A stretch of 63,828 nt of DNA, the filler included, from Rozella allomycis CSF55 (lineage: Eukaryota), in the NCBI GenBank assembly GCA_000442015.1. It is 9 parts of 9 records of this genome, joined end to end, with 100 filler letters (N's around TTAATTAATTAA, not from the genome) between each part and the next. Parts side by side here need not be neighbours in the genome. Positions count along the whole stretch, not along the records: positions 1 to 1,738 come from KE561289.1; positions 1,839 to 9,262 come from KE561296.1; positions 9,363 to 30,023 come from KE561297.1; positions 30,124 to 33,472 come from KE561303.1; positions 33,573 to 35,057 come from KE561310.1; positions 35,158 to 58,417 come from KE561313.1; 3 more parts are not named here. One strand, 5' to 3'. Of this stretch, positions 239 to 56,897 are shown in pieces. Both the position numbers and the translations under genes were made by a program. Below the pieces are notes generated by a model, which worked only from the letters and a program-made list of their open reading frames with translations, did not search any database and was not told the DNA's origin. Numbering within the stretch: position 1 is the first letter of the stretch; each line of letters begins with the position of its first letter.

Positions 239-1058
239 TTAATATTCAATATCGCTATCTGACACGTCTGTGTCAGGTAAATGTAATTCATCTTCCTTCA
301 AATCTGATTTGATCATTTGGTACTTTGAAAGTGCCCATTCAACATCTATGTGACAGAAATTATTTTCCTACTTTTTGCTTTACAGGATTTCCCGCCAAAT
401 TCACTCATGCCAATAATTTGGTGCCTTAGATCACCTTCTCTGTATAGCAGAATTGTGGGAACATTCCTGTCAGGATAATTTGGAATGCAGGATGTAGATT
501 CTATTTTAACAAATTTTGTTGCTTTGAANCGTGGGAACATTCCTGTCAGGATAGTTTGGAATGCAGGATGTAGATTCTATTTTTACAAATTTTGTTGCTT
601 TGAATTTTTTTGACAGCGTGTTGAGAATTTCTTCTAGAAGCCTTGATTCGTGTACACGAAATTAAAAATGAAAACGTCATTTACTAGTCTTTTTTTAGAA
701 GAACCACTACTGGTGCTCTATTACTTTCTTCTGTTACATGCCTAATGAAATCAGGTTTAGATATCTCAATAACCTCTCCATATTTTTCGGTCTCGGCAAG
801 TTTCTTCAATTCTTGAATTCGCTTCTTTCTGGTTTAATATTTTTTTATTTTATACCTATATTCTTCCATAACTACCTCGTCTAACTCGTCTTCTAACTCA
901 TCTAATTCATCTAGAGTCTTCTGCTCCATGATTTCCTTTTCCTTGGCATCAGCCGCTTCTTGCGCTATTCGAATAATTTCTTCCTCTTTAATTTCAATTT
1001 CTTTGGGTGGCAAGATTCCCTTTCGACGAAGAATATCATTCCATTCTGTGTCCTCCAT
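239..1058 (-). CDS. PDCL3: Phosducin-like protein 3 (Plp2/VIAF), CCT co-chaperone
   Basis: [20 protein letters not shown] and [25 protein letters not shown] motifs; three short introns, one ending in CG (657-684); assembly duplication around n529. Confidence 0.9.
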
Positions 1059-1147
1059 GTTATCCCAAAAACTAAAAAGTCCAAAATGGAAAATTCTGAT
1101 ACTGGATACAGAAACTAATGTTTATTTAAGTGATAGAATTATGTGAT

Positions 1148-1738
1148 TCAAGCGTTTTGATGAATAATTTTGCTTAAAAAAGTAGTGAATTCAGTATTCA
1201 ATATTGTTTCATCTTGTAGCACCGGTAATTGTGAAAACTGTTTTGCTTAACACTACGCTTATATTATCTTACGTAATTTTAGATTCTTTTTTGACTCTTG
1301 ACGTCCAACAAAACTTTGCGCCACTATGAAAACCCTTTCGATATCAATGCCGTAGCGTTTAATTATTAGGTTATACCATTGACCAAATACAATAAGTTTT
1401 ACCAATATTCTAAATCAGTTTCAAAATTTGTAGTCTTCCCATCAATTACTAACAAAATGCCGTCGGCTCTATTCTTGCACATGGTTAACCATAGAGAGTT
1501 TAGGGCTGGATCACAATTACAGTCCCATAATTCAACATTGATACGATCCATGCTATCTTCCTTCTCTATGTTTCTTTCAAATTCCATAATGCTGATGTGA
1601 CCGCCATATAGATGTTACCGAACGGTTTTGGTAGATGGTTGATATATAGGCTTTTCTTGAAAGGAATCACTTATTGATGCAAGGTAATTGGAAATAGTAG
1701 TTTTTCCTGAACCTTTGGGCCCTACCACAATTATCTTA
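1148..1738 (-). CDS. IFT22: Intraflagellar transport protein 22 (RabL5 GTPase-like), 5' end in gap
   Basis: KIIVVGPKGSGKTTISNYL P-loop, RIMEFE, VELWDC, DGILLV; three 26-27 nt introns, one ending in TG. Confidence 0.8.
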
Positions 1739-1941
1739 NNNNNNNNNNNNNNNNNNNNNNNNNNNNNNNNNNNNNNNNNNNNTTAATTAATTAANNNNNN
1801 NNNNNNNNNNNNNNNNNNNNNNNNNNNNNNNNNNNNNNTTACCAAAGTGTCGTACGAAAAACAAAAATCCAGCAGTTCTACGAGCGAGGAAACCATAAAA
1901 ATTTAGTGGCTTGGGCAACATTGAATTTTATTTGTTATTTT

Positions 1942-2578: not shown

Positions 2579-2596
2579 GAGAAGACCCTGGCATAC

Positions 2597-9963: not shown

Positions 9964-10046
9964 TGTTAATACAAGGGTATTCGCTTACTGTCATAAAAGG
10001 CACCCATGTAATAAATTTTCTTTATTTCCTTTAAAAATCTTTAATA
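9964..10046 (+). repeat. Copia 5' LTR (83 bp, TG...TA)
   Basis: Matches 18223-18304 with 4 substitutions and 1 indel by eye. Confidence 0.92.
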
Positions 10047-10060
10047 CGTTATCAGCACGA
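10047..10060 (+). promoter_or_regulatory. Primer-binding site CGTTATCAGCACGA
   Basis: Directly after the LTR; reverse complement TCGTGCTGATAACG resembles the tRNA-Ile anticodon arm. Confidence 0.7.
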
Positions 10061-10070
10061 TCCACGAATC

Positions 10071-13000
10071 ATGACTACCACTGAACTTTCTTCTACTACG
10101 TCTGGTCATGCTGATCTGCCAGCACCACGCACTCACGTCACTACGCTAACCATCGGCTGTCCCCTGAAAGGCCAAGAAAACTTTGAAGAATGGGCCTGCC
10201 AAATGAAAGTACTCTTAAAGGCACATCAACTGTGGGACAACAAGCAGGATAGTCCCAAAACCGAAAATACTCACGCACATCATGCCATCGTTAACAACCT
10301 TGACAAAACCTTGATTCACTTAGTTCTGGACACCGTTGACGCTTCTGATGCATGGGAACGACTTAAAAGCCAATACAAGAGTGAAAGCGTTCCTAGGAAA
10401 CTCAAATTTATTCAAGAACTTATTGCGCACGACTTTGCTATCGGTACTCTCGAAGACGGTTTTAATCGTGTGGCAACGCTTGAAAGAAATCTTACAGCAT
10501 CCAATGGCTCTGATAGTATCAAAATTACCGACCTGACTTTTCTCATTGGGGTCTCCGCTATCGTCATTATGAAAATACGAAAACTTGTGCAAACGTTTCG
10601 AAGACCAACGCAAAACCAGCTGCCATGCTTGCCGTCAAATGGGTGGCCGATTCTGGATGTTCTGACCACATGGTGAACAATAAAGATCATCTTGATTTTT
10701 ACGCTCCACAGTTAGAAACAATTCATGTAGCCAACGGTACTAATATGACTTCCGAAGGAACCGGATCAATGTCCTATCAAGCCAACAATTTTCAAGGCAT
10801 AATCAAAAACATAATACACTGTCCTTCACTTTCTCATAATCTGCGCTCTATAAGCGAATTTGCTGATCACGGTCTATCCACCATCTTTACGAAATCTAAA
10901 TGTTTGTTTTAAAAGGTAATATTGACGAATTCATAGCGGAAAGTTATGACAGAATTGTTCTGGAAGGTAATCGTGAAGATGCGCTGTACACACNGCTATC
11001 GTCATTATGAAAATACGAAAACTTGTAAGACCAACGCAAAACCAGCTGCCATGCTTGCCGTCAAATGGGTGGCCGATTATGGATGTTCTAACCACATGGT
11101 GAATAATAAAGATCATCTTGATTTTTACGCTCCACAGTTGGAAACAATTCATGTAGCCAACGGTACTAATATGACTTCCGAAGGAACCGGATCAATGTCC
11201 TATCAAGCCCACAATTTTCAAGGCATTATCAAAAACATAATACACTGTCCTTCACTTTCTCATAATTTGCTCTCTATAAGCAAATTTGCTGATCACGGCC
11301 TATCCACCATCTTTACGAAATCTAAATGTTTTGTTTTAAAAGGTAATATTGAAGAATTCATAGCGGAAAATTATGACAGAATTGTTCTGGAAGGTAATCG
11401 TGAAGATGCGCTGTACACACTTCAAACGGAGAAAATGCCGAAAGCAAGACACTACTCAACTTTGGCATAATCGGTTGAATCATATTAATTTTCAAGAACT
11501 AAAGTCACTGGGCTCACGAGTATTTGGATTGCCTCCGTTTACCAATGAAAACTTGAATTCTAATTCTTGCATTGCAGCAAAACAAAAGCGAAAACCTTTT
11601 CCGCATTCATCAACGACAACAACGTGTATCGGAGAATTAATTCACCACGATGTATCTGGCAAGTTTCAAGTAGAGGGAATGAATGGTGAGTTTTACTATT
11701 ACGCATTTTTAGATGACTTTTCAAACTTTCTTATTANTAAAATGCCGAAAGCCCTTCAAGCAAGTAAAGACACTACTCTACTTTAGCATAATCGGTTGAA
11801 TCATATTAATTTTCAAGAACTAAAGCCATTGGGCTCACGAGTGATTGGATTACCTCCGTTTACCAATGAAAACTTGAATTGTAATTTTTGCATTGCAGCA
11901 AAACAAAAGCGACAACCTTTTCCGCATTCATCAACGACAACAACGTGTATCGGAGAATTAATTCACCACGATGTATCTGGCAAGTTTCAAGTAGAGGGAA
12001 TGAATGGTGAGTTTTACTATTACGCATTTTTAGATGACTTTTCAAACTTTCTTATTATTTACCTTTCAGCAACCAAAGATCGTGTTTTTCAAGCTTTTGA
12101 AGAGATCAATAATCGCATTTTTAATCTAACTGGGCGTAATATACAATGTGTTAGGTCTGACAATGGAGAATTAAATTCAAAAGAAATGATTTCCTTCTGT
12201 AAGCAGAAAGGTATCCGCAGGGAGCTAACAGTTCCGTACACACCTCAGCAAAATGGTAAGGTTGAGCGAATGAATCAATCACTTTCAAACTGGCTTCGGG
12301 CAACATTATTTGAATCACAACTACCCTTAGAACTTTGGCCGGAAGCATTAAAGTACATAACGTATACAAAAAACATGACCGCAAAATCTAAAGACATCTC
12401 GAAGACACCCTATGAAGTTTNAAATTCACCACAATGTATCTGGCAGTAGAGGGGATGAATGTTGAGTTTTACTATTACGCATTTTTAGATGACTTTTCAA
12501 ACTTTCTTATTATTTACCTTTTAGCAACTAAAGATCGTGTTTTTCATGCTTTTAAAGAGATCAATAATCGCATCTTTAATCTAACTGGGCGTAATATACA
12601 ATGTGTTAGGTCTGACAATGGAGAATTAAATTCAAAAGAAATGATTTCCTTCTGTAAGCAGAAAGGTATCCGCAGGGAGCTAACAGTTCCGTACACACCT
12701 CAGCGAAATGGTAAGGTTGAGCGAATGAATCAATTACTTTCAAACTGGCTTCGGGCAACATTATTTTAATCACAACTACCCTTAGAATTTTGGCCGGAAG
12801 CATTAAAGAACATTACGTAAACAAGAAACATGACCGCAAAAATCTAAAGACATCTCGAAGACACCCTATGAAGTTTGGTTTGGGCGAAAACCAAACATTT
12901 CACACTTAAGACGGTTTGGCGACATTGGGTTTGTTCATCAACATAAATCCCAACGTCAGGGAAAATTGGCTCCACGTGGAAAGGAAATGGTATTTATTGG

Positions 13001-15135
13001 GTACAGTGAGGAAGCAAAAGGTTATAGGTTAATAGATATGAATACCAGAAAAATATTCATTTCACGCGATGTTCAATTTATTGGTGCAAGCTTCTTTGAC
13101 ACAGAAACTGAGGACAAACCTGAACTTCAAATTGATGACACAGATACGTTTTTCGACTCTAATTTCAGTAATCACATCAATAATGACAGTGCTTCTGACC
13201 CACACAATATCGATAATAGTGACATTACGGATGAACCGATTCAGCAACAATCTTTCTCCCATTTATATGAAATCTCGGAACGCAATATATTACCAGAAGG
13301 ATCCAAGCGTAACCGATCTAGAAATGAAATCCATCAGGTCTTCATGCTATCTAAACAAACTATCTCTGAAGCTCCAGAACATTATCGTGATATTGAACAC
13401 CGTGCAGTTAAAGAACTCTGGTATCAAGCTGTCAAAGAAGAATTTGATGGACTTAACTCTCATGGAACTTAGGAGCCCGCAAACACAGTTCCAAATGACA
13501 GGGTACCAATTGGCGGCCGTTNTAAAATATTTATTTCACGCGATGTTCAATTTACTGGTGCAAGCTTCTTTGACACGAAAACTGAGGACAAACCCGAACT
13601 TCAAAGTGATGACACAGAAACGTTTTTCGACTCTGATTTCAGTAATCACAGCAATAATGACAGTGCTTCTGACCCACACAATATCGATAATAGTGACATT
13701 ACGGATGAACCGATTCAGCAACAATCTTTCTCCCATTTATATGAAATCTCGGAACGCAATATATTACCAGAAGGATCCAAGCGTAACCGATCTAGAAATG
13801 AAATCCATCAGGTCTTCATGCTATCTAAACAAACTATCTCTGAAGCTCCAGAACATTATCGTGATATGGAAAACCGTGCAGATAAGGAACTCTGGTATCA
13901 CGCAGTCAAAGAAGAGTTGGATGGACTTAACTCTCATGGAACTTGGGAGCCCGCAAACACAGTTCCAAATGACAGGGTACCAATTGGCTGCCGTTGGGTG
14001 TTTAAATTAAAAAGGAACGCTGACGGATCAATAAGTAGATATAAGGCTCGTCTTGTGGCCCAAGGATATTCCCAGATTCCAGGTGTTGATTTTGAAAACA
14101 CTAATGCACCAGTCGCTTACAAAGATTCTCTGAGATTATTTCTATCTTTATCTATGATTTACGGCTTTACTATTGATCTGATGGATATTGTGCAAGCATT
14201 TCTTATTCCAACCCTAACTGAAACAATTTTCATGAAAATTCCGGAAGGTCTGAACCAGATAAATTCGCCGTGCCTACGTCTAAAGAAGGCATTATATGGG
14301 CTGCGACAGGCGCCANATAAAGAACTCTGGTATCAAGCTGTCAAAGAAGAATTGGATGGACTTAACTCTCATGGAACTTGGGAGACCGCAAACACAGTTC
14401 CAAATGACAGGGTACCAATTGGCTGCCGTTGGGTGTTTAAATTAAAAAGGAACGCTGACGGATCAATAAGTAGATATAAGGCTCGTCTTGTGGCCCAAGG
14501 ATATTCCCAGATTCCAGGTGTTGATTTTGAAAACACTTATGCACCAGTCGCTTATAAAGATTCTCTGAGATTACTTCTTTCTTTATCTATGATTTACGGT
14601 TTTACTATTGATCAGATGGATATTGTGCAAGCATTTCTTATTCCAACCCTAACTGAAACGATTACCATGAAAATTCCGGAAGGTCTGAACCAGATAAATG
14701 CGCCGTGCCTACGTCTAAAGAAGGCATTATATGGGCTGCGACAGGCGCCAAAATGTTGGAACGAGGAAATTGACTCATTTTTAAAAGGTATAGGGCTCAC
14801 TGCTTCGTACATGGGCTGCGACATGCGCCAAAGCGTTGGAACGAGAAAATTGACTCATTTTTAAAAGGTATAGGGCTCACAGCTTCTACAATCGATCCCT
14901 GCATTTATGTGGGTAAAGTGAATGATGAACTATTTTTGTTGGGACTCTATGTGGATGACATCATAATTGCAGGAACTCCAGAAACCAAGAAGATTATTTT
15001 GAAGTAAAAGATTTGGGGACAATGAAGTATTGTCTTGGTTTTGAAGTTGAACAACACCCTGAACAACATTATTTAATTATGCATCAAAATTCGTTTATTG
15101 AAAACTTGCTACGAATTACCGGGATGGAAAATGAA
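10071..15135 (+). pseudogene. Copia gag-pol fragments (gag, protease, integrase, RT)
   Basis: ENFEEWACQMK gag; WVADSGCSDHM protease; LWHNRLNH..C..C; VRSDNGE..PQQNGKVERMN integrase; RYKARLVAQG and LYVDD RT; stops, frameshifts and overlapping duplicates at single n joins. Confidence 0.92.
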
Positions 15136-15261
15136 TCAATAAACTCCGTGGAGATTAATCCTCCGGTTACCTACCAATTACCAATTCCAATTCTTATGTC
15201 TTCTGATTCTAATTCACCAGTTAACGTCACCTATTAATATCAGAGCTACAGGAGCTTAAGN

Positions 15262-15640
15262 CAATACTTTCATGTAATTTTACCAACGGAAGGTCCAAAA
15301 AATTTTGAATATTCAACACCATTAGAGAGTCTAGGTAACACAGGGCCTGTTTATAAAATTGATGGTATTCTCAACTTGTCACGGAAGATCTTGCACAATA
15401 TATGTACGACTTGTGTTTCGGGACCCTAGTAATAGAAATAATTCGCGACAAACTCAAAATACAACAAAAGAAAAATATTTTATTTAGTCAAATGGAAAGT
15501 ATGCGAGAATCGTGAGGCAAAATGGGAACCTTTGGAAAACATAACGGATTGCATGGAGAGTGTGTATGATTTTCATATTAGGAACAAGAATAAGCCATGT
15601 CCAAAATCACGCGATTTCTTGAGAAACCTAGCTATATAAT
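15262..15640 (+). mobile_element. Ty3/Gypsy chromovirus fragment (integrase C-terminus and chromodomain)
   Basis: YFYLVKWKVCENREAKWEPLENITDCMESVYDFH chromodomain, preceded by an FHV motif. Confidence 0.7.
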
Positions 15641-15729
15641 GTAAACCTTATCGAATCATCTGCATCCATCTGATAGAGTCTATCTCCAAAGCCTATGTTG
15701 ACCATATAAGAAGAGCNTTTCGAGTGAAT

Positions 15730-15778
15730 TGTGTGTGTATGTGTGTGTGTGTCTGTCTGTCTGTGTGTGTGTGTATGT
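15730..15778. repeat. (GT)n/(GTCT)n microsatellite
   Basis: Directly visible. Confidence 0.9.
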
Positions 15779-16294
15779 AACCATTTTTGCTTCAGTTTTC
15801 TCCCAAAGTTGGTCTATGAACTCAGAACACCCAATATACCAAGCAATATTTTTTTTCANTAACCTGTTACAATCGCATCAGTGTTAGAATTATCTTTATT
15901 CAAATTGTTAGAATTATCTTTATCGGGCGGGGAGTTTGCGACCAGGACTTCAGAAACGATTATTGGCATGTTGGGTTAACACCATTTTCACCTCNTGGGA
16001 TGGAAAATGCAAACCCAGTATCAACTCCACATAATTCAAGCATAAAGCTGACTAAAGAAACCCCTGATAATATTGCAGAAATCGAGTTCATGAATGGCGT
16101 ACCTTATCGAAGTATACTTGGAAAACTTTTGCATCTGTCCACTGGCACGCGTCCTGATATCTCNCTGAAATACGGAAACGCAATTTATAAATAAATCTAT
16201 TTTAACTTCTTAAAAAAATGTTTAATAGAACAAAGCACAAATAGTTTGTTTTTGTGCGGCGCCCTATTCACTCCCTTGTGTCGTACCTAGCCCA

Positions 16295-16530
16295 TGGGGG
16301 GACACCTGTAGTAAGGTCGGATATCAAACTCCAGATAAGGCTTATACGACACCTTTAACATTCATCAACATGAATATTACAACCATTCTTGATGGATCTC
16401 AAAGATGTTACCTTAGCACCGACTACGCACCTGTAGTAAGGTCGGAGATCAATGTCAACATAAGAATCTTTGGATACCTCTAATAGCAACTAATACAAAT
16501 ATAACAACCATTTTGCGTGGGATCTGAGAT
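16295..16530 (+). repeat. Possible LTR remnant with a diverged ~125-bp tandem duplication
   Basis: GGGGGGAC tract, then TGTAGTAAGGTCGGA at 16307, repeated at 16432. Confidence 0.45.
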
Positions 16531-17425
16531 ATAAGTGACAATTGTAATTATAAAAGAGAGGAGTCATAATTCTCAAAGGATCTCTTAATCCTGACGGATC
16601 TCTATTCTGATACCACTTATAGAAAGGATACTATTTATAGAAAGGACCAACATATAAAACTCTAAGGAGATATCAATAAATAGAACGGAGGATAATCCAT
16701 TCTCAATCAACATCTGTTTTACTCTTTTATCTTACGACTTACTTTCCAATTTATGAGGATTCAGATACTATAGGCGCATGGAGCGACACCTTGTATCCGG
16801 TATTGTTTATTAGAATAAATGAAAATCGATATTTGGACCTTGTCGTGTGAAGGACGGTTTCGTTCTTTTTAATGGACGTTTGGGACAATAATCCGTCAAG
16901 AACAAACAGGTAAAAGGCCTGTGAGGTATGAACTGCCGGGCGAAGTAGAACGTTTTTGGATTTATCTCTTTGAACGTTTTCTATATTTAGTACCACTTGC
17001 TATTTAACAGGTTAATTGTAAAACATGAAGTTAATTAAAATCCTGTTATTACAACACATAGCAACATTAATCATGACTAGGTTATTGCCCACACCCATCA
17101 CCATGCAGGCAGCAGGGCACAGCATCTATATTCGACCTTTTCACAAACAGCATTTATCATTAAAATATGTATCAAGTGATTTAGGAAAGAGTCAATTAAT
17201 TTACTTCATGACAAATATCCGTGTCATACTTTACCTATTAAAGGGTCCTGGAAGTTTTGTCTCATATCTGAGTCACAATTAATACCCTGAGATTCCATTC
17301 GAAGTCCCTAACATAAATCTGACATTCATTGTTGAAAACCTCGAACTATGTTGAAACTCACCCTAGGGGGTCCTTGTAATGAGTCAACCATTGCATAAGG
17401 AAGTAACCTTGAAGATCATCAGATN

Positions 17426-18215
17426 CCAAACCCAGTATCAACTCCACAAAATTCAAGCATAAAGCTGACTAAAGAAACCCCTGATAATATTGCAGAAATC
17501 GAGTTCATGAATGGCCTACCTTATCGAAGTATACTTGGAAAACTTTTGCATCTGTCCACTGGAACGCGTCCTGATATCTCTGCAGCAGTCAGCACTTTAG
17601 CAAGGTTTCAAGACAATCCATCACATCAGCATTGGAACGCTATTAAACATCTTCTCAAATATCTTAGAGGAACAAGCAAATTTGGTCTCAAGCTTGGCGG
17701 GAAAAGTAAAGGTGCAAACAATGAAAATATATCAAACAATAATTTATTAGATGTTCGTATTTACGCAGACGCCGATTGGGGTGGCTGTCAAGACACTGGA
17801 AAATCCACTACTGGTTTTTGCTTAATGGTAAACGAAGGCTGCGTAGCCTGGCAAAGTAAACTTCAATCTTGCACTGCGTTGTCCAGCACAGAGGCCGAAT
17901 GGTATGCTCTAACATCTGCCACACAACAAGCGATTTGGTTTTGGGAATTGTTAATTGATATGGGGCAGAATCTGAACTAGCCGACAACAATCTACCAAAG
18001 TACCATGAAGCTGATTGATCTGAAAAGAATCGAGCAAGAAGCAAACATTTCTTAATCAGACAAAATTTTATAAAGGAAAAGAGAGACGATAAAATTGTAG
18101 AAATTCTTTACTGTACAACCTCTGATCAAGTAGCTGACATCTTTACCAAGAACCTACCAAAGGCACCCTTCCTTAAACACTTTCAATCCTTAGAGCTATC
18201 AGCTGCTTCCCTTGA
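17426..18215 (+). pseudogene. Copia RT C-terminus and RNase H
   Basis: [45 protein letters not shown]. Confidence 0.92.
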
Positions 18216-20483: not shown

Positions 20484-21882
20484 TTACTTTTTCACGCAAT
20501 CAATGTGTGTCAAGTCTTGTGACAAATCGTCCAACTCTCTCCTCAACTGGTAAATCTCATTGACCAAATCTCGATTATGCATCTTTAAAAGATCCACCGT
20601 ACTTTCGTAAATTGCGAATTTTCGTTCATAAACTGTTTTGTATGCTGGATTTGACGAGTCTGTATTTAATTCGTTTAGTTCTTCTGAAATTCCAGTTTTA
20701 ATATCATGCGAGACATCAATATTCTTGACACGATTTGATATTAAAGTTATTGGCGCATCATCGTCAAGCGATGAGCAAGTTCTCTGTTTGTAATCGCCAC
20801 ACTTATACCATTTCAATCTATTATCTGTAAGATTTAAAATATAATGCATAAACTCTTGAAAAACCGGGTTGGTTGATTGCGATATGTAGTCCAAAATTCT
20901 TCCAATACACGGCTTCCTTTGTTCGTTAAGGAGCAACAACAATGCGCCCAACATTCTGTCGAATGATTCTTCGGAACTAGGTAGTTCAAGATAGTCGAGC
21001 ATAAAGAGGCCCAAATTATAGTATCGCTTAGAGAAGACTATTTTGAGATCGTCGACGACAATTTGTGCACTCTCNGGGTAGTTCAAGATAGTCAAGCATA
21101 AAGAGACCCAAATTATAGTATCGCTTAGAAAAGACTATTTTGAGATCTTCGACGACAATTTTTGCACTCTCCTTGCTTTTCAGGATCCAAGGAATTAAAG
21201 GAATCAAATGTATCTCTTGTTCTCTATCCAGTAACGTTTCAATGTTCATTCTATTAAAGGGACTTTGAAAAAAGTCGTATGGATTGTTTTCTTGTAGATA
21301 ATTCACAATTCTTGTGTTAAACAAAAAATCAAGTTTATGCCAACGATTCGCAAAAAACACAGTCAAAAACAATGTAGAGTAGTCAATCTTGTTATGGGAT
21401 TCAAAAAACTTTCCCATTGCGGGCTCTTCCTCCTCAAACGTTATCATATCAATTGCAATAGCAGTTTGAATTTTGGCATCATCAAACACATGACCATTCA
21501 TTATAAAAAATTCTATCGAAGACCAATAGTTATTCAAAGTTTGAAAATACATATTCTTGATGCCATCAAAAAAGCGGCTAAATAAAGAGTTTCTTTCATC
21601 AGGACGAAGTTCTTCATAAATTTTTTTCAACTTGGGTTCTTTACTAGAATCTAAGAGTTCTCCTAGTAGTTGGTCAATTTTCTGCTCATTGGATATCGAA
21701 ACTTCGTAGACATCAGCGGGATCGATTCTTTCATTTACTAAAACGGGATCTCCCTCTGCCGAAGATCCTGAAACTAAATTAGACTGTGCCGATAGAACCT
21801 CGGGAACAACACCGCCCACTTGTTCATTGTTTTGTAAAGACCCCAAAACCAAAAACACGAGGATTAAGAAATACTGGTGCAT
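20484..21882 (-). CDS. Orphan secreted protein (one gene, split by a duplicated join at n21075)
   Basis: Signal peptide MHQYFLILVFLVLGS; the two ORFs share ESA.IVV.DLKIVFSKRYYNLGLFMLDYLELP. Confidence 0.7.
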
Positions 21883-21948
21883 CGAATTTAGATGTGGCTA
21901 AGACTTTCCCGGCTGATAACAAATCAAAGGACAATGACTTGGATATTT

Positions 21949-22389
21949 TTATTGCTTTCGAAATTGTCTAAACTTTCTTTTCAATAGCTTTACAAAAGGA
22001 TTGCAATAGGTTGGAGTTGACTTTTGTTCTGATTCTACATTAACGTTTTTGTTATTTGGTGAATCTGGATTTTCAGGCACACAAGCATTATAGTTTCCAA
22101 GTTCATAGTTATCATCGATATTGGGACGACGCTTGTTGACAAATATGGACACATCGCCACTTGATGTTGCATCGGTTCCGTCGCTATCATAAAAACCAAT
22201 ACTTGGTGATCGTGTCACAATTTGAAATTCACATTGATTTAAATGCAAGGGCTTTTCTGTATCTTCATGATCAAAGGAAGGATATTCTTCCACGGCTGAA
22301 AAGAACGTGCATAATTTAGATTCTGACGAAGACTCAATCATAATAGAAAGATCTGTCGCTGTTCTATTATTTAATTCGGAACTCGACAC
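21949..22389 (-). CDS. Hypothetical protein (start uncertain, next to an n-join)
   Basis: 146-aa open frame, no ATG seen. Confidence 0.4.
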   Translation of the reverse strand: MSSSELNNRTATDLSIMIESSSESKLCTFFSAVEEYPSFDHEDTEKPLHLNQCEFQIVTRSPSIGFYDSDGTDATSSGDVSIFVNKRRPNIDDNYELGNYNACVPENPDSPNNKNVNVESEQKSTPTYCNPFVKLLKRKFRQFRKQ

Positions 22390-22527
22390 ATTAAAAANTT
22401 TAAATCGGAACTCGACACATTAAAAATTGAATTTGTAACCAAGATATAGAATAGAAGTAGCATTTGGATAGTGGCTTTGCTGCCTGCTGACGGTATAAAC
22501 TTGTCAAAAATACATTAAATGAGAAAT

Positions 22528-23319: not shown

Positions 23320-23424
23320 GGAACAAACGTTAAGTAAATTAGGGGAATTAGAAGNAACGTAAATTAGCCAGTCGGAATAGGGGGATTAGGGTTATTAAGA
23401 TAAGATAACTTTTGAAATTAGCAT

Positions 23425-38839: not shown

Positions 38840-38977
38840 TTCTCAAACCAGGGTCACTCTCTTCATTATAAAATGAAGCTGGCTTTTTCCATTGCATTAC
38901 ATACATAACTTAACACAAATGTATTACAAAAAGATATTATGCAACAGCACATACATTACTTATTTTATTTACATGAC

Positions 38978-39373
38978 CTATTTTTCTAATGCCTTTTGTA
39001 ACTGTATAGCATCTAGATTGCTGGTTGCAAGCTAATTCAATGAAATAGAATATAATTTACCATATCTAGCAATATGTCTATTTTAAATTTCAACATTTGA
39101 TTTTCTTCCAAAAGCTGTCGGTTAATTTCTTTAAGCTGTGATGCTTTCTTGGTAGCTGTATCGCCCTCTACAGACACTATTTTCAGCATCATTAAATTCA
39201 ATACCAAGATTCCAGCAGTTGTTTTCATAGGAGAGTTGATTGCCATCCAAATTCAAAGTAATCGGAACTCCAATATCTCCAAATTGTATATCCCGAATGT
39301 CCTTAATAGGCGATTTAACGAAACTGTCTGAAAATCTCCTTGTTCTTTCCTTTACTGTTTCCCATGTCGACAT
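38978..39373 (-). CDS. CBY1: Chibby (basal body/ciliogenesis)
   Basis: ITLNLDGNQLSYENNCW and LLEENQMLKFKIDILLDML; two introns. Confidence 0.8.
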
Positions 39374-39472
39374 TTATTCTTTGTTGTTGAAGGTGAAAAC
39401 ATAAACATTGAGATACAATGCAAAATTGATAAAATGAGCTCAAAATTGTTTATTACAAAGGCTTAAAGATGC

Positions 39473-39796
39473 TTAAAATCTTGAATTCCATATCCTATTT
39501 TCTGAATTAGAGTACTTCGATGGAGCAAACGTTCGTCTTTTTGCCGTTTCTTCCAGGCATTCTACTTCCTCAAATAAAATACCAAGCAACCTTTCTTTAA
39601 TGTATTGGGTAGCGTCAACAACATCTTTAATAGAATTATTGTTCTTTTTCTTGTTTTTGGATTTTGTTTGGACACTTACATTTTCTGGCAAACTTAGAGC
39701 AATCGCTAATTCAAGTTCATCTGATTCTTCATAAAGCGGTTTAGATTTTGAACAATTTAAATAATACTTGTCCTGAAATGCAAGGTCATCTTCCAT
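39473..39796 (-). CDS. Hypothetical protein with UIM-like ELELAIALSL motif (5' exons unresolved)
   Basis: ORF track and motif only. Confidence 0.4.
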   Translation of the reverse strand: MEDDLAFQDKYYLNCSKSKPLYEESDELELAIALSLPENVSVQTKSKNKKKNNNSIKDVVDATQYIKERLLGILFEEVECLEETAKRRTFAPSKYSNSENRIWNSRF

Positions 39797-42290: not shown

Positions 42291-44916
42291 TTATTGATTA
42301 TAATAATTGTTGAAATCTAAACGAAAAGCCAAAAATTTTAATTCTGGAGAGCCATGGCAAGACAAATCATTCATGAACTGTTTCAGATTTTTCTAATTAA
42401 CAATGAAAGGAACTTCATTTACTTTGAAATTTTGAAGATTTTGTGCAAGATTTTGAAATAGTTTATTGTAGATGAGGGATTCTTGATTTTTAGCCTCTAA
42501 ATCTGCTCGTTCATCTTGTAGTGTTAAACCCCAAAGACCTTGAGAAGAGCGTTCAAATTGCAAGAGTTTTACTTGTTGTCTTCTGGAATGCATTTGATGC
42601 GCTAAATTTAAGAAAGAATGTTGAAGATTTATTTGTTCAAAGATGATAGAAAACAAGAGTGTTAAAGATTGATAATGAGACACCTAGAAGAAACAAGTAA
42701 GAAAGAATTACGTTTAAGAGGCATCCCTTTTCTATTGTAGATAAAAACATGTCGTGAGAAGTGATGAGTTTATCAATGTCGATTTCACGTTGAGAAATTT
42801 TGTCGAGAAAATCAATCCACGACAATTCAATGACTTCAAATTGAATGAAATATTGTAATTGATTTAAAAAATGATTCATTTCAGCCAAGAGAGTGTGAAT
42901 TTTGAGATTTTCAAAATCAATGTCATCTTTCAAGGCTGAATAGATGTGTTTATTAGACATGTGATCTTTATAAATGTTTATTAGATTGTGCTCTAATCTT
43001 TTAATTCTCCAGAGGAATTGAAACAAGCGAAGATATTTCTCCATTGCATTTAAATCTATTATTGTGTTTAAAGGGAAATTTATGTGAAAATCTAAAGAAA
43101 AAACATCCCATCCAGTATCCTGGTTAGAAATTGGCAACAGCCGAACATCCAATCTTTTAAGAATTTCTTCATGATCAAATTGAGCGTTTGAACTTCTGAT
43201 TGCTGTTTCTAAAATGCCTGTTAAATTATGACGAAATAGATTTTCAGCTGATTGATCAAGTCTATTAGAAAGAAGATCCAACATTGTTTGAACAAAATCA
43301 CCTTGCCCCAGCAACAAATATTTCTTCAATGCTTTGAAATTGTCAACTAGACGATATTTCTTCAACAAAATATTCTTCAATTCTTCACTCCTTTCATAAT
43401 GAAGTATTTCTATTTCTTCAGCCATTTCAGAATAAAATTCATCTTTATTATCTTTATTTTAATAGAAATTACAATCACAATTCAAAATATTTTTTTCTGA
43501 AATTTCATGATTCATTGCCCTCATAAAGTTTATTGATTTCCCAAGGCTAAATATTTTCTCTGCTGCATTTGTTGGTATAAAACATGGAAGATATTCTTTT
43601 CTAAAATAATATTTATTTCTCCAAATGTTATCGCTATTATCTTTGCATGCAACAAAAAACTCATCAAATGGATCTTCAACCACCCCTTCATTAATCCACA
43701 AATTTATCATTTTAAAAAATGGCTTGGTGGCTTCATTTATCAATCTTTCCATCAACGTTTTCACTGACACATCCCCATGAGTAGTAAAGTTATACAAAAC
43801 TGTCAACAAATCGCTCCCTTTCAAAACTTTTAATATTTTTAAAAATTTATTACGAGAACAAAGACGGCAAAGTGAAGACAAAAGTTTCAATTTGTAAATT
43901 TCCATTTGACTAGCAGAAATTATTCTCTTCAATGAAAATAAAGAATCGCTATTGAAATGACTCTCCAAAGTCGCAACAAACTTCAAATACGATTGAAGTT
44001 CTTCATTCAATGCAAATGCAAAACTCTTAAACATTAAAACGATTCCAGTTTACTTGATTCATCAATCCAACTGTGTTTCCTTTCTTACTTTGTTCAATGT
44101 ACTCGTTTATAATTTTATAATTCCATCCACTTTGAGCTAATTCCATCAACAATCGTCTTTCAGTATTTCTTAATGGTTTCTTCATTTTGTATTCATTTTG
44201 AACATTATCAAATCCTATAAACATCCCATCAATGCCCTGCATCAAAAATAACCCTTCTCTAACCAATTCACTTTCTTTATTAACTCTTTTCATCTTTATC
44301 TCTTTAAATTTCTCCCAGGCTTTTTCTTGTGATTCTATTTTCTTTTCAGGTATCGGTAATGATACCATTTCTGATTCCTTTAAAATGAATCCAACATTAT
44401 TATTTTACTTTAAAACTAGTTAATTCGAAGCTCTCTAGAAATGATGGACCTTCCTTTGCTCAAATTTTAATACCTAGCTTACTCCAACTTGAACAGGCTC
44501 AACACCACCTCTTTGAATCTGTAAAAATAAATACAGTATTTCCCATTTCTTATCATACTTGACTTTGTCGGCTAACTGTGCAATTCTAATCGCTCCATCC
44601 ATATGTTCTTGTTGTACCACTATTATATGTCATCTGTAAAGATTACTTTTTTTCTGAATAGCTTGGATCACAGAATTTTCATCTTTGACTACAGAAATTG
44701 CGAGTTTTGACGACAAAAGTTGCTGCAAATAAAAGACTAGCGGCTTCAGTCCTTCACTATCTTCTTTTACTTTCAGAAATTGAATCACAAGCTTTTCTAA
44801 CATCATATTCAACACATTTCTGCTGGGTGTTCTATCTTCATAGTTTGCCTTTGTTCCTAACATTCGCATACAATGTGGCTGGGAATCTTCAACCTCTCAA
44901 TCAAACTTACCACCAT
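42291..44916 (-). CDS. TUBGCP3: Gamma-tubulin complex component 3 (Spc98/GCP3)
   Basis: KKYLLLGQGDF, LFRHNLTGILETAIRSSNAQF, GWDVFSL, RLDFN; multiple short introns; start approximate. Confidence 0.9.
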
Positions 44917-45103
44917 TTTTATCTTTATTGTTTATATAGTAATGAATTTCATGTCTGTATCTTTTCGAACTAAAGATTTGCAAGTACACTCAAGTGTTAA
45001 TAAAAAGTTGGCATTATTCTTTTAGCGCTAACATTTTCATTATCCATAATTCATTTCCATAATTAAAGTATTTGATTGTTTCTTTATTTATATTTGTATA
45101 TCA

Positions 45104-46533
<1,430 letters not shown>

Positions 46534-50038: not shown

Positions 50039-51787
50039 TTATTCAATTATTTCATACGACCATATTCTTGCTCTACAGTCACCCGATCCAGTTGCGAAAA
50101 GCGAGCCATGAGGACTTTGCGTCACTGAAATCACTAGATGAAAATAGAAAACACATTGTACCAGAATTTTTATGACCTTGAAGAATAGCATGCATTTCAG
50201 CCGTCTGAGGATCCCAAAATTGAACCCTGAATAAAGTCAAAGGATAATAGTTACGATCTGTCTTTGGATCCAGATATGGCCCACATTCCATCATTTGAGT
50301 ACGCAACAGAAAGAACATAATCTTTGTGTCCTTCAAATGTGTGCTTGCAAGCGTCTTTGATTTCAGAGTTTAAATCCCAAATTTTTAAGGTTTTATCAAG
50401 AGATCCAGACAAAATCATCTGACCGTTAGGGGAAAACGCAACTGAATAGACAGAATCTTTATGTCCTTCAAGTTTATCAATCGGCTTTCCACTTTCTGCG
50501 TCCCATAATCGAATCGTTTTGTCGAGAGAGCCGGCGGCTATTAACGTTCCATCGGGACTATACGCTACTGATGTTATTCCGCCCTCTTTTTGACTTCCAT
50601 CGTCACTAGAAAGAATATGAACAGCCTATAAATATATCTAAAAATTATTACTTCCCCAGATTCAACGTCCCAAATCCTGGCAGTCCTATCGCCACTTCCA
50701 GATATGACGAAACGTCCATCTTTCGAAAACTCCAGGGAATAAATATCTTGCTCATGACCGTGAAATATTTTCTTTAGTGTCTTTTCTTCCAAGTCCCATA
50801 TCTATTAACAATTTTTTTTTCGAAAATTTACCCTAACTGCCTTATCTTCAGCCCCGGTAGCAAGAAATTTGCCATCTTTACTGAAAGCCACAGATCTGAT
50901 GTATAAATCTCCTTCTCCAGCATTTTCATCTTCTAATACACTCTCAAAATTTATAATATCCCTTACGCTATCTTATCACCAGTTTCAACATCAAATATTT
51001 GAGTTGTTTTATTACAACCGGTAGCTAAAAATTTGGCATCATCACTAAACTTCACACAGCACACTACACTCAAATGATCAATCGAATGATGTAATTCAAT
51101 GTTAATTTTTCGTGGCATATTTGGATTGTATCTATTGGAAAATAATATTAAGCGTTACATGACATTCCAGTCATTTCCCTCTTTTTTATGAGTAGTAGGA
51201 ACTTGGCTCGGGTCGATATTATGAAAAAATGATTTCTTTGGATCAGGCAAAGCCTTCACAACTTGGGGTTGTGACTTTGGCACCATAGGTTTCACAGGAA
51301 ATGTTGGTGGTACAGAATTTGATTGAATATCTTATTAAAAATAAATACAATAATTTACTTGACGCTGGTAAAGAAGGCAGAGAAACTGACGATGAACTTT
51401 CTTCCAACCTAGGGCGTTTTAGGGTTACTGCTGGATCTCCCCCTCTCGCTTCTAGTTCTTTTTTTAATTTAAATATTTCGTCCTCATATCTTAAAAAATC
51501 AGACTCTACATTTTACTGTTGTTTCATTTTTAGATGAGCTCTCTCCAGCTCATAGACGTTTTTTTGGATCTGGATAATTTCATTTATTTGAGATTGAACT
51601 AAAAATAAGACAGACTATTTTTACATACCTAGAACTACTAAAAATATCAGCAAGTACCTTTATGTTCAAAAGATTCTCGTTGCACCGAAAGGTCTTGTGT
51701 AGATGTCTCATATTCCTGTTTTAGTGAATCCAATAGCTCATAAAAACGACTGGCTGAAGTTGTAGCCGCTGGCCGATGCCCATACAT
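50039..51787 (-). CDS. TUP1: General transcriptional corepressor Tup1
   Basis: Tup_[38 protein letters not shown]40 repeats; includes twin introns 51599-51657. Confidence 0.92.
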
Positions 51788-52068: not shown

Positions 52069-52569
52069 ATGACAAGACCAACTGAGAAAAGGCATGTTTC
52101 GAATGGCCAAAGAAGCGATGACAGAAACTCAAATTTTCAAAATAAAAGAAGAATATTTGTGGATAATAAAAAAAGTTTGAGTGAGAGGTAAAGAATTAAT
52201 CATCTTTAATATAGGTAAATACCTTAGTAGTTACTTGAAAGGTTCCAGTCAGTTTCAGAGGAGCGTCGCAAAAATATGATAAGTAGAAAACGCGATAGGT
52301 TTTCAGTACCTGAAAAAATGCCAATGAAAAGGGACTTGAGGCCAAGAGGCTCGAATTCAAATTTTCACGGCAGAGGAAATTTTAGAGGTTCATCAAGTGC
52401 ATCAAGAAGCAAAAATCTATCCAGAATCTCGAGAAATAATAAAATGCCTCTTGACAAAGAAAAGCTCGATGCGGATTTAGACAAATACATGATGAAAAAT
52501 GAGAACTTCGCAAAGGCAAAGCTAGACGAAGAGTTGGATAATTACATGGCTATGGACGAGAAAGAATAA
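52069..52569 (+). CDS. CHTOP/FoP-duplication RNA-binding protein
   Basis: SLSERF motif after splicing, RG-rich middle, duplicated LDADLDKYM/LDEELDNYM. Confidence 0.75.
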
Positions 52570-53375: not shown

Positions 53376-53568
53376 TTAAACAAAAACAATAAATAAACAT
53401 AATACCAGCTCTCCAGCTCTAAAATATAGTAATTTTTGCTATGATTTGTCTAATGTAACAAAGATGGTAGGTACTCATAATTTTTCATATATATATATTT
53501 AATATGCATTATCAGATTAAACATTTTATGATTCTCATTTCAGACAAAAGGTAAACAAACCACGGTCA

Positions 53569-54888
53569 ATGAGGACAGTCAGTCTGGTAATGGTTGCATT
53601 GCTTATGTTCCCAAATACGGTATACACATCTTCATGGCTTTCATGTCCCTTATCTTTTAATCCAAACAGCAAGAGAGGTGGAGAGTTGATAGGACCATGC
53701 GAAGTTCCTGTAGAACCAGTCGCCGTAACCCAAGTCCGGGCGGGTGATAGACTTAAAGTTGGTTGGCCTTCAAATAATAACGGCGGGGGATATGTTCGCT
53801 TATCTTTGGTGCCGGAATCTCAGTTCGATGATGCATCCGCTTTCGAAAAAAATGTGCTCAAATTAGGTTGTTTTGGACATGACCAACGTTCGGGTAAATT
53901 TAAATCCGGTGTATGTGTTCATCCTTGCAATGGTAGGCCGGGCTGTCAATTTCAGTCTTCTGTAAATGACAATGAACGTTATGATACAACAATTTCAATT
54001 CCTTTCAATATTCCCAATGGTTTATACATTTTGCAATGGGTTGCATTGATAGGAAATAATGTTAGGCCATACTACAGTTGTGCTAAACTTTCAGTAACAG
54101 GCGGGAATGTCAGTATTAATTGTAACGTGCCAAAGTCCATCAACATTCCAACTTGTATAAAGGCTTCCGGACCAACATCGAGTCAGATTTTGCCGGAAGG
54201 ATCAAAATATGGAAACTTCTGCTATGGTTCTCAAGGATCATCTAATATTGATTATAACATTAGCCAGAAACCTGCAAATGCAAATTGTGATCCCAGGGTT
54301 TCTTGTTCTTTATCTGTTTCCGAAAGTATTTGTAAACAAGAAATAACGCAAAATTTTGATTCCAACAACCCCTTTATTAAAAGTTGTCCCATTGATTCGA
54401 CTGCAACAAAGACTACGACAATGTCATCAACTGTTACGTCTACCCTTACTTTATCCAGTAGCACATTTACTACACGTCCATCGACGACTACATTGATTAC
54501 AACAGTAACAAAAAGTACTACCAAGATTTCATCGACTACTTCTGCAACTAAAACTACTATTCCGACAACTACTGCAACAACAGTAATTAAAACTACTACA
54601 AAGATTACGTCAACTACTGAAACTACAACAAACGTTCCATCAACCTCTCCAACCAAGACTACCAATTTACCGACATCTACTCCTCCATCTCCGACCTGCC
54701 CAATAAATGGACAAAAGTGCAACATATCTCCAGATAAATTCTTCTGCGTAGGAAAGGCTATTGGAAGATGTGTTTCTAATCAATATGTAGTGTTCAACTG
54801 CGCGCCTGGGACAAAATGTAGAATTGTAAGTGGAACGGCGATATGTGATTTTGATGACAAAAAACCTGACGCGCCTTGTTTATTTTAA
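53569..54888 (+). CDS. Secreted EnP1-like / LPMO-like Cys-rich protein with Thr-rich linker and CBM19-like C-terminal domain
   Basis: Signal peptide; AGDRLKVGW..YVRLSLVPE..FEKNV..YILQW..YYSCAKLSVTGG; CVSNQYVVFNCAPGTKC. Confidence 0.65.
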   Translation: MRTVSLVMVALLMFPNTVYTSSWLSCPLSFNPNSKRGGELIGPCEVPVEPVAVTQVRAGDRLKVGWPSNNNGGGYVRLSLVPESQFDDASAFEKNVLKLGCFGHDQRSGKFKSGVCVHPCNGRPGCQFQSSVNDNERYDTTISIPFNIPNGLYILQWVALIGNNVRPYYSCAKLSVTGGNVSINCNVPKSINIPTCIKASGPTSSQILPEGSKYGNFCYGSQGSSNIDYNISQKPANANCDPRVSCSLSVSESICKQEITQNFDSNNPFIKSCPIDSTATKTTTMSSTVTSTLTLSSSTFTTRPSTTTLITTVTKSTTKISSTTSATKTTIPTTTATTVIKTTTKITSTTETTTNVPSTSPTKTTNLPTSTPPSPTCPINGQKCNISPDKFFCVGKAIGRCVSNQYVVFNCAPGTKCRIVSGTAICDFDDKKPDAPCLF

Positions 54889-54924
54889 TAAAATATAAAT
54901 ATTATAAGAAATGTTCGGTGTTTA

Positions 54925-56897
54925 TTAAGTTTGAGTTAAGTTGTCTATCAGATGATTGTGTTCTACGGAAGGAGGCTTGTTATCATGACATGTTTCAATT
55001 GACTTATACCAGGCATCTTCCATTATGTCGTTAACGTTTATTCTCTTTTTACAATCCGGTTCAAGAATCTTAAACATAAGTTCTTTGGCGCCACTAGGTA
55101 ACCGGGCTAATGGTTCAAACTGAATACCTCTGTGCTCAACGAAATAACAATAATTAGGGTCTTCAATAGTAGCTTTGGCCCAAGGTATACCCCTAAAAGT
55201 TGTTGCGTAATAAATGATCCCACACGCCCAAATGTCAACTAACCGAGCGTCATACTCAGTTTGGGTGAATTCTTCTGGTGCAATGTACGGAGTTGAGCCA
55301 CAGACCCCTTTAGATAAATGAGGCTTCTTCTCCCAGCATATTCTAAACACTTCGGAGACTCCAAAGTCAGTTATCTTTAGCCTTCCATGCATGTCAATCA
55401 ATAAATTTTCAGGTTTCAAATCTCTATGAGCAACACCAACTGAATGAAGGTAACTAACTCCTTGAATAAGTTGCTTGAAACAGCAATCAATTTCTACAAC
55501 CGTCATCTGCCCACCACGAATAATCGAATACAAATCTCCACCTTTTGACAAACAAAGGAAGGTTATTTACCTGAATAGTATTCCATCACCTCATACCAAT
55601 GGCTTCCATCACGAATAATATCCAAAGTTTCAACAACATTCATATGATGCAACATGGACCCTATGCAATATTCGGAAGTCATTTTCTTTATGTAGTCTCG
55701 ATACGCTTCATCCTTTTTCTTCTTTCGAAATTCTTTTATTGCAAATACTTTCTCTCCAGCTCCACGCCTAGCTAATCTCACAGTACCACCAGCGCCTTTT
55801 CCTATAACCTTAGTGCTAAATATGTGATAGTCATCGAATGTATGAGGTTCCATTGGAAGTAGTTTAGGGTTGGAATTGGAAGCGGAATCATCATCATGTG
55901 CTTGTTGAGTTTGCTTTCTTTTAATCTTTGGTGAATTCAAAAGTTCTTTGATTGGATCTAAAATTCCTTTTTTATGCACTGAAACATCATGATGAGATCT
56001 AAACAAGTCAGTTTGACTGCCGCTTTTCGATAAAGAGGGTTCTGGAGTTATTCCACGGGAATTATCGTCATCGTTTGAAGGGCTCAACTTGAGTGTATTC
56101 TTATCTTTATCATGATCGTTATGCGAATGAAAATCACTCTGGGAGGATGAGTTTAATAAATGACTAATATGAGTCTTGGAAAACAATTTCTTCATGTCAC
56201 TTTGCTCATGAACAGAATCAGATGACGATCGTTCAGTTTTTCGTAAAATATTCGGTGATGCATCCCTGGAGGAATGACTTGTTATTCCATTAGATCTTGA
56301 AGAAGCGGCGCGCTTTAGTTTCGGTGAAGTAGCACGGCTAGAATCCGCCGGTGTATGAGCCCCAGATAAACTAAATAACTTAAACTTAAACCGATTTTTC
56401 TTTGTGCCTTCTTGTGTAGTTGACTCTTCACTCTCAATTGATTGTTCGCATTCCATTGTATGGTCTTTTTGCCGGTGGACGCTGGACTCATGACTTTCAG
56501 ATGAAATGCAACCAATCTACTTACCTTTCGAATGAATTGAATCAGGTATAATTGAATGAGATGAATCAGCATTCAATAACTCTTTAATATCTTCATTTTC
56601 ATCGACAGCGCTATTAGTGCTTTTTATAAACGACGGCAACTTTTTCATACTGCTATTGCTTCTTTTTCTGTCCAAATATTTTTCCAAATTATTTTTGGAG
56701 TTATTCCAATGAATTATATTTCCAAGCAAATCATAGGCCACGTCCGAACCAATGAGGAATGGCGTTTCGCATTTACAAACCTCAGCGCACGATGAACAAA
56801 GCCAAAAAGCATCAGAGAATTGGCCTCTGGCGGAAAATTCAGCACTAGTTAATGCGGCAGTACATATCAATGGCATATTAAATTCCAACAAGCCCAT
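54925..56897 (-). CDS. Ser/Thr kinase, Sat4/Hal4/Npr1-type; 5' extent uncertain
   Basis: [44 protein letters not shown]. Confidence 0.85.

Follow-up and report, generated by a model that had tools for sequence, protein, structure and literature searches.

Putative GT–TG and GT–CG introns of modal length in conserved genes of Rozella allomycis

No signal of nuclear introns is as constant as the 3' AG, which is hard-coded in gene finders. In the 63,828-nt stretch of joined Rozella allomycis CSF55 sequence analysed here (the window), conserved genes are interrupted by in-frame stops, which raises the question of whether some introns of this organism end in a dinucleotide other than AG. A sequence-only reading had claimed that the stops in TTLL1, PDCL3 and IFT22 can be removed only by an intron ending in TG or CG, with a kinase as a possible fourth case. 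The analysis suggests that two, probably three, conserved genes make sense only with a TG- or CG-ended intron of 26–28 nt (Table 1).

Table 1. Genes and intron readings discussed in the text; positions count along the window
Feature	Position	Strand	Description
PDCL3 (phosducin-like 3 / PhLP2) gene	239..1058	-	221-aa model, homologue alignment
PDCL3 intron 2	657..684	-	28 nt, GTAAAT start, TTCG end (GT..CG), AG-free
IFT22 (RABL5) gene	1148..1738	-	5' end lost in N linker
IFT22 intron 2 (probable)	1377..1402	-	26 nt, GTAAAA start, AATG end (GT..TG)
IFT22 rival intron	1335..1402	-	68 nt, in-frame GT..AG, would delete 14 residues
TTLL1 gene (tubulin polyglutamylase)	45104..46533	+	401-aa model, 8 introns, homologue alignment
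TTLL1 intron 1	45198..45225	+	28 nt, GC..AG; needed to link first exon with conserved DWHFYW stretch
TTLL1 intron 3	45341..45367	+	27 nt, GTACAC start, CTG end (GT..TG), no AG inside
Kinase upstream intron	56494..56524	-	two overlapping 27-nt readings
Kinase reading 1	56494..56520	-	GTAGAT..AAAG, canonical GT-AG; donor 4 nt downstream of that of reading 2
Kinase reading 2	56498..56524	-	GTAAGT..TCTG, non-AG; AAAG 4 nt on

The ordinary introns of the window are very short. In an AG-only parse of well-scoring genes, 60 of 63 confident introns measure 24–32 nt, with a mode of 26–28 nt (45 of the 63 are 26, 27 or 28 nt long) and a typical GTAA start; just three exceed 32 nt, and two of these are tandem pairs. 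The donor carries A at +3 in 59/60 confident introns (GTA start), and at +4 it has A in 50/60 and C in 2/60. G is frequent as the first exon base (AG followed by G, 17/60). Choosing the first AG at least 25 nt from the donor gives the right 3' end for 59/60 short introns, and AGs located 19–24 nt from the donor are passed over. As judged from the sequence, intron length in R. allomycis is constrained to about 25–32 nt and the distance constraint on the 3' site is real. The rule "first G at least 25 nt from the donor" scores 57/60, which is uninformative because the intron lengths make success near-automatic.

In raw length spectra of GTAA..NN candidates, AG alone forms a peak. Candidates enumerated by their ability to bridge open reading frames are mostly 3-nt shifts of true AG introns. 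Several non-AG introns from a permissive parse were rejected. Those in a copia-like element (14248, 14807, 15004 and others) lie in degenerate or joined repeat copies, and the one at 21874 would fuse two genes and delete a signal peptide. The candidate at 21135 sits some 30 nt away from N 21075, where the assembly was joined, and is therefore probably a join artefact; a search for duplicated sequence at this join was negative.

The TTLL1 exon at 45740–46171 is 100% identical to an NCBI protein named TTLL1 of R. allomycis CSF55, and the exon directly 3' of intron 3 matches Pfam TTL positions 11–39 (E 1.8e-4). Intron 3 contains an in-frame TGA, and its excision produces a gap-free alignment with 39/40 homologues, which have no residue in the nine extra columns. 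The only AGs downstream of its donor lie at 58 and 71 nt and are both out of frame. Homology thus firmly supports, and in that sense confirms, its reading as a 27-nt GT..TG intron. The bases show no differences in a contig from a public DNA run (X2, depth 383), and among the 40 of 196 contig differences listed, eight from a diverged contig (X5) fall around the intron and none inside it. A metagenome scan with TTLL1 detected distant loci only (L001, 58% identity; L002, 39%). The public TTLL1 model (322 aa) places its start downstream of intron 3 and misses about 75 N-terminal residues. GC..AG, as in intron 1, is a known minor class of intron ends; the presence of two unusual introns (GC-AG and GT-TG) in this gene could hint at decay.

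PDCL3 exon 1, used as a query, retrieved 125 PF02114 phosducin-family proteins. Excising intron 2 takes out a TAG and a TAA stop together with a +1 frame change, and without it the protein is gap-free against 45/45 homologues across the thioredoxin-like domain. The AG alternatives fail: cutting at 43 nt creates a TAG codon at the junction, and cutting at 51 or 54 nt breaks the frame. On this homology the assignment as a 28-nt GT..CG intron is likewise firm and taken as confirmed. Within exon 3 of the same gene the assembly has a join (N at 529), where a 73-nt piece is duplicated. No public R. allomycis model of PDCL3 was found among models of at least 119 aa.

Fewer homologues were found for IFT22. 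In the PDB, exon 2 has a match to chain 8ruy_T (E 5.4e-4), named "Intraflagellar transport protein 22"; the P-loop lies in exon 1. A full HMMER search returned two homologues, the public model of Rozella and an incomplete leech protein with its end at the same W; a word-index search for homologues returned none, and a PDB search with exon 3 gave no match at E up to 10. The public model, a 75-aa "hypothetical" protein, jumps across intron 2. A parse with introns limited to 32 nt picks the 26-nt GT..TG intron, which retains 14 residues from the W to the VFIVAQS strand. For this gene alone, the true intron could instead be the canonical 68-nt GT-AG, giving a protein 14 residues shorter: it is in frame, ends in AAAG and is the choice of an AG-favouring parse. 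Against it, 68 nt would exceed every other single intron found in the window, and the 42 nt that it additionally removes have exon-like composition (−0.062 per base). On the Roc profile, residues 7–55 of exon 2 correspond to positions 46–93 of 119, from which 26 further residues would arrive at the VFIVAQS strand. Given this spacing and general knowledge of small GTPases, the 68-nt intron would leave 13 residues, not 27, to link strands four and five of a Ras-like fold. The longer intron is therefore considered unlikely; the non-AG intron is the better reading, and its identification as GT..TG is probable. The earlier claim that such stops are removable only by a TG- or CG-ended intron thus stands for TTLL1 and PDCL3, and "only" does not hold for IFT22.

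The kinase need not be a fourth case. Either reading of its upstream intron keeps the frame, and the two products differ by two residues outside the conserved regions. A non-AG intron is not needed in the gene model, because the canonical 27-nt GT-AG also fits. The bases of this intron show no differences in the X2 and X7 DNA contigs. The DNA contigs contained no joints that skip an intron.

The three remaining introns have much in common. They end in TG (IFT22, TTLL1) or CG (PDCL3) with the final G kept, and none of them contains an AG. Their lengths are modal (26, 27 and 28 nt), their interiors T/A-rich and their GTA donors consensus-like. Per base, their composition scores are 0.12, 0.12 and 0.06; introns give 0.061 ± 0.075 and exon controls −0.072 ± 0.095, which places the interiors in the intron range and above 89–97% of the exon controls. 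The next AG beyond the intron end is 31 nt away in TTLL1, 42 nt in IFT22 and 15 nt in PDCL3. In all three genes the exons on either side remain open and conserved, canonical introns recur downstream, and position −2 of one intron is the sole defect per gene. Set against the features of U2-type introns, a 5' GT with consensus extension and genome-typical length and composition are present, and the 3' AG is absent. Human tandem TG acceptors have a canonical AG a few bases away; among the introns discussed here this is found only for the equivocal kinase intron. Only with acceptors other than AG, placed at the modal intron length, do TTLL1 and PDCL3 appear colinear with their homologues.

In the one 64-kb window sampled, three non-AG introns stand against 68 canonical ones, or about 4%; the latter comprise 63 from the AG-only parse of well-scoring genes and five read by hand in TTLL1, PDCL3 and IFT22, and they count junctions solvable with AG rather than observed junctions, since the parse permitted AG alone. 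In fungal annotations the "other" splice-site class makes up 0.257% (PMC7072748, Table 1). Against this background the binomial probability is 8.5e-4 for at least 3/71 and 0.015 for at least 2/71, and the excess is significant. Of the three to four cases first proposed, two hold as stated and one is probable. Outside the original genome paper, the literature on Rozella introns, splice sites, spliceosome, and transcriptome or gene models yielded no report of non-AG acceptors, and that on GT-TG and other non-AG ends yielded none for any ultra-short-intron lineage. The acknowledgements of PMC13393502 indicate that there are RNA-seq data for R. allomycis.

These introns are probably ordinary U2-type introns in which the A of the terminal AG has been lost and the place of excision is unchanged. 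Normally the 3' cut falls at the first AG some 25 nt or more beyond the donor. A short tether between the branch point and the 3' end would limit docking in the catalytic centre to a very narrow RNA segment, so that the final G could be enough, with a pyrimidine at −2 tolerated if no AG is in reach. In structural work the last intron G pairs with the first intron G. The sequence-only reading went further and described the acceptor as effectively NG, set by distance. All three introns do end in G and the length ruler holds in the short introns (59/60), yet "effectively NG" is too strong, because 68/71 introns end in AG and the frequent AG followed by G suggests that AG is specifically read when present. 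Since AG remains strongly preferred, the choice of any NG by distance is only partly supported, and the non-AG ends would be a degenerate state tolerated in a few per cent of introns rather than an "NG" rule for all. A bolder version can be put forward only tentatively: the Rozella spliceosome would use a ruler of about 25–30 nt from the donor or branch point plus the final G alone, and could dispense with the A of AG and with its recognition factors.

To our knowledge, AG is required for the second step in the spliceosomes studied so far, which counts against any non-AG reading. Splicing in R. allomycis might be AG-only and the genes of this strain broken or shortened, with TTLL1 starting from an internal Met, PDCL3 ending at the TAG and IFT22 mis-spliced. 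The public TTLL1 and IFT22 models are built in just this manner, all other introns of the tally have AG, and TTLL1 has its second unusual intron. This account must nevertheless explain why the exons it skips have stayed intact and show strong conservation, with the 75 N-terminal residues of TTLL1 and the whole PDCL3 thioredoxin-like domain aligning gap-free. Random decay would strike exons first, while here the lesion is confined to −2 and the final G is retained. Three such hits in roughly 30 genes and 64 kb are unlikely, and PDCL3/PLP2 is essential in yeast. Broken genes are thus quite improbable as the general explanation.

Errors of base calling or assembly at −2 appear less probable still, to the point of being very doubtful. 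Assembly joins with duplicated sequence do exist, one of them 130 nt from the PDCL3 intron, and the DNA contig check was confined to TTLL1 and the kinase. At the two sites covered, the genomic bases behind the original proposal were borne out by independent contigs: X7 or X5 contigs have the identical bases, as do the X2 contigs at about 380–400x word depth. Three independent errors, each precisely at the acceptor A, would also be improbable. The least credible account is minor (U12-type) splicing or translational recoding, whether by read-through, frameshift or bypass. At 27 nt, the TTLL1 insert preserves the reading frame and carries a single TGA; against this, TGA is a stop in R. allomycis, because it terminates 3/27 gene models, and read-through would insert nine residues missing from 39/40 homologues. 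PDCL3 and IFT22 would need frame changes over several stops, and all usable frames are stopped. The U12 consensus consists of an [AG]TATCCTT donor and a TCCTTAAC branch box 10–15 nt from the 3' end. The donors GTAAAT, GTAAAA and GTACAC differ from this motif, and nothing like TCCTTAAC is placed at the expected distance; the TTAAC in TTLL1 is just 2 nt from the intron end, and a U12 donor fit is missing there as well.

The reading as U2-type introns with a degenerate 3' end can be compared with known systems. The three introns resemble the 24–32-nt GT-AG introns of the same genome in GTA(A) donor, length of 26–28 nt, T/A-rich interior, phase and position in conserved genes; they differ in ending in TG or CG, with the first AG 43–68 nt from the donor. 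Ultra-short introns of very narrow lengths are also found in Paramecium, Stentor, chlorarachniophyte nucleomorphs and microsporidia. There too the narrow lengths imply a length-measuring constraint, but AG is kept as far as is known. U12-type (AT-AC) introns likewise tolerate non-AG ends, whereas, measured against the generally known motifs, the Rozella introns have neither the donor nor the branch boxes and their branch-to-3'-end spacing does not fit. Human TG acceptors mostly adjoin a canonical AG. TG 3' splice sites were described in the human U2-dependent introns of GNAS and TSPYL2 (Szafranski et al. 2007, as cited in PMC4176328), the TSPYL2 site being alternative and tissue-specific (PMC4176328). 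As far as that account goes, they share the GT..TG ends and otherwise major-type signals with the Rozella introns; in Rozella, in contrast, the site would be the sole productive one, in 26–28-nt introns, and such introns make up about 4% of those in the window. Relaxed donor dinucleotides are described for Oikopleura dioica and for Eurytemora affinis (GA-AG) in PMC7072748. On that description, the departure from GT-AG at the per-cent level and the compact genome are alike, but there the donor varies and in Rozella the acceptor. PMC6349667 mentions two Rozella introns of about 30 nt in S23 without the microsporidian donor and branch motifs.

If the non-AG introns are real, a relative of fungi and microsporidia with ultra-short introns would use TG and CG acceptors constitutively at the per-cent level, and AG recognition would be relaxable where geometry fixes the site. 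This would also explain the truncated look of conserved Rozella genes in public annotation (TTLL1, IFT22). The earlier expectation that AG-only predictors mis-model these genes agrees with the two public models found. If the ruler and final-G reading also holds, a few per cent of introns, some hundreds genome-wide, would have YG ends, and public Rozella gene models would be wrong in matching proportion. R. allomycis would then offer a natural system for studying site choice in the second catalytic step of splicing.

Ordinary introns were collected with a gene parser that scored codon log-odds and allowed GT or GC donors and AG acceptors only, so its tally represents the junctions solvable with AG. 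In the confident set (genes whose coding score reached 25 or more, the copia-like element left out) it yielded 63 introns. Sixty are 24-32 nt long, including 18 of 26 nt, 15 of 27 nt and 12 of 28 nt, and the remaining three measure 50, 54 and 59 nt. The two longest are twin introns, whose frame stays open only if both units are removed; apart from these two and the doubtful 50-nt intron, no removal in the set is above 32 nt. The donor is GTA in 59 of the 60 short introns and GTAA in 50; the consensus at the 3' end is A(T/A)AG, and T and A account for 44% and 33% of the interior bases. The rule of taking the first AG at least 25 nt from the donor finds the correct acceptor in 59/60 short introns of the window. 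AGs at 19-24 nt are skipped in 11 introns, so intron length has a hard lower limit. Only one donor in the confident set departs from GTA, namely GTGATT at 43472-43478 (-) in a 27-nt intron; 6 nt further on, GTAATT would give a 21-nt in-frame intron with the same AG, a possible alternative donor pair. Passages of two published accounts agree with very short introns in Rozella allomycis: one describes two introns of ~30 nt in S23 of this species (PMC6349667) and in the other, which compares fungi, intron medians are as low as 29 bp (PMC8042348).

Genes and introns discussed in the text (positions along the whole stretch)
Feature	Position	Strand	Description
Twin intron	52188-52241	+	54 nt = 27+27 nt, two complete GTA..AG units, no exon between
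Twin intron	51599-51657	-	59 nt = 29+30 nt, two complete GTA..AG units, no exon between
TTLL1 gene	45104-46533	+	8 introns
TTLL1 intron 1			GC-AG
TTLL1 intron 3	45341-45367	+	27 nt, GTACAC..CTG, in-frame TGA, no AG
PDCL3 gene	239-1058	-	221-aa model after removing 657-684
PDCL3 non-AG intron	657-684	-	28 nt, GTAAAT..TTCG
IFT22 gene	1148-1738	-	exon 2 matches PDB 8ruy_T, IFT22, E 5.4e-4
IFT22 intron, non-AG reading	1377-1402	-	26 nt, GTAAAA..AATG
IFT22 intron, AG reading	1335-1402	-	68 nt, GT..AAAG, loses 14 residues
Kinase gene	54925-56897	-	
Kinase intron, sequence-only reading	56498-56524	-	27 nt, GTAAGT..TCTG, in frame
Kinase intron, canonical reading	56494-56520	-	27 nt, GTAGAT..AAAG, in frame

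The sequence-only reading had proposed that PDCL3, IFT22, TTLL1 and possibly the kinase need 26-28 nt introns that start with GTA and end in TG or CG. Homologue alignments uphold this for TTLL1 and PDCL3, where the observation is real and the use of the non-AG acceptors in splicing is predicted from sequence. The NCBI protein 'tubulin tyrosine ligase-like family, member 1 [Rozella allomycis CSF55]' matches the 144-residue TTLL1 exon at 45740-46171 with 100% identity. Removal of intron 3 joins ...GYRISDNQ directly to a stretch of 16 protein letters, and the next exon aligns with positions 11-39 of the Pfam TTL profile. The model was aligned with the first 40 homologues, out of 120 listed, whose length is 395-445 aa. 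The 9 columns added by intron retention are empty in 39/40; the exception, P0013, is misaligned over that block and resembles a fused model. The next AGs, at 58 and 71 nt from the donor, are both out of frame. A contig from the public DNA run X2 (44245-45679, depth 383) spans the intron with 0 differences to the window, and a diverged contig from a second run, X5 (about 45137-45766), has 8 differences, 0 of them inside the intron (among the 40 of 196 differences listed).

In PDCL3, TAG and TAA follow ...VVVLLKKD and the conserved continuation lies in the +1 frame. Against the first 45 homologues of 225-250 aa among the search proteins P0121-P0240, model residues 71-175, a block including a stretch of 12 protein letters, are gap-free in 45/45. 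If the 28-nt removal is shifted to either of its other two registers, the intron ends in TC or TT. Splicing to the first AG (43 nt) would form a junctional TAG, and neither the AG at 51 nt nor that at 54 nt is in frame. A protein search found no Rozella PDCL3 model of at least 119 aa. An assembly join lies inside exon 3 (N at 529; 455-603), with a 73-nt piece on both sides (2 mismatches), as if unmerged alleles or overlapping contig ends had been retained; the duplicate was left out of the model. None of the 17 other single-N joins has the 20-mer that follows its N repeated within the 400 nt upstream.

The non-AG acceptor of IFT22 is probable. Exon 2 also matches an incomplete leech protein, whose sequence stops at the same W, and after ...DLEYW two in-frame removals, of 26 or 68 nt, are available. 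The 26-nt reading is favoured because the extra 42 nt of the longer one are exon-like (composition score -0.062 per base vs 0.061 for introns), because a single intron of 68 nt would be longer than any other in the window set, and because only the 26-nt model would place the VFIVAQS strand 26 residues beyond the part of exon 2 that matches the Roc profile. For the kinase, a non-AG intron is not needed. Its two overlapping readings differ by two residues in an unconserved stretch, and since GTAG donors (2/60) and TG acceptors are both rare, the sequence alone does not choose between them.

The tally is 3 non-AG introns vs 68 canonical ones (63 parsed and 5 read by hand in the three genes). Against the 0.257% given for the fungal 'other' splice class in Table 1 of PMC7072748, the binomial probability is 8.5e-4 for at least 3/71 and 0.015 for at least 2/71. 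Homology places each removal to within 1-2 nt, and the frequency of G is 12% inside introns and 20% in exons. A GTA start, a modal length and a final G in all three removals would not be expected by chance. More permissive parses of the window gave no further convincing non-AG case.

The window has a G+C content of ~35% and is built of scaffold with 44N-TTAATTAATTAA-44N linkers and single-N joins. The standard code applies, because the 27 gene models end in TAA (18), TAG (6) or TGA (3). Pieces of a copia/Ty1-like retroelement occupy about 10000-18000 (+) in the order gag-protease-integrase-RT-RNase H, as several partly repeated segments with single Ns between them and frame breaks. Four to five adjacent genes lie on one strand at 20484-26437 (-); none has an obvious family, at least three begin with a signal-peptide-like stretch, and the run is possibly a secreted-protein cluster. 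A second, minor X2 contig at 46207-46324 and 47439-47500 (depth about 115 vs about 350) carries differences matching those of X5, and a variant contig at 38801-39545 (site 38858-39474) is common to X5 and a third run, X7. These suggest that the DNA runs contain two haplotypes or strains that diverge by about 1-2%.

The expectation that AG-only prediction would mis-model such genes is borne out by the public Rozella proteins for TTLL1 and IFT22, both wrong here. In the TTLL1 model (P0001, 322 aa) translation begins downstream of intron 3, with the Met of MVKNIKRY, so that about 75 conserved N-terminal residues are missing; near its 3' end the model has a 35-nt intron where a 26-nt intron fits the homologues better. 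The IFT22 model (P0241, 75 aa, 'hypothetical') joins ...GILL straight to FSQL..., combining distant exons. In the relevant passages of PMC13393502, IFT22 is present in rozellids and Rozella models are curated with RNA-seq.

TG acceptors are known in human genes (PMC4176328). Literature searches on non-AG acceptors found none described for Rozella or other ultra-short-intron genomes. Each of the three introns lies between conserved, intact exons. Dropping the A from the common ...AATAG and ...ACTAG ends gives sequences like the two TG ends, and the CG end is like ...TTTAG with C in place of A. The sequence-only interpretation is thus supported in part. The proposal that acceptors are chosen by distance survives in the observed length ruler; its pure 'NG' form does not. 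AG is still preferred, and the first exon base is G in 17/60 introns, a frequency with which such a rule could not cope. G-G pairing takes place at the catalytic centre of the spliceosome. With a very short tether between branch point and 3' end, the final G may be sufficient and the A at -2 would become dispensable.
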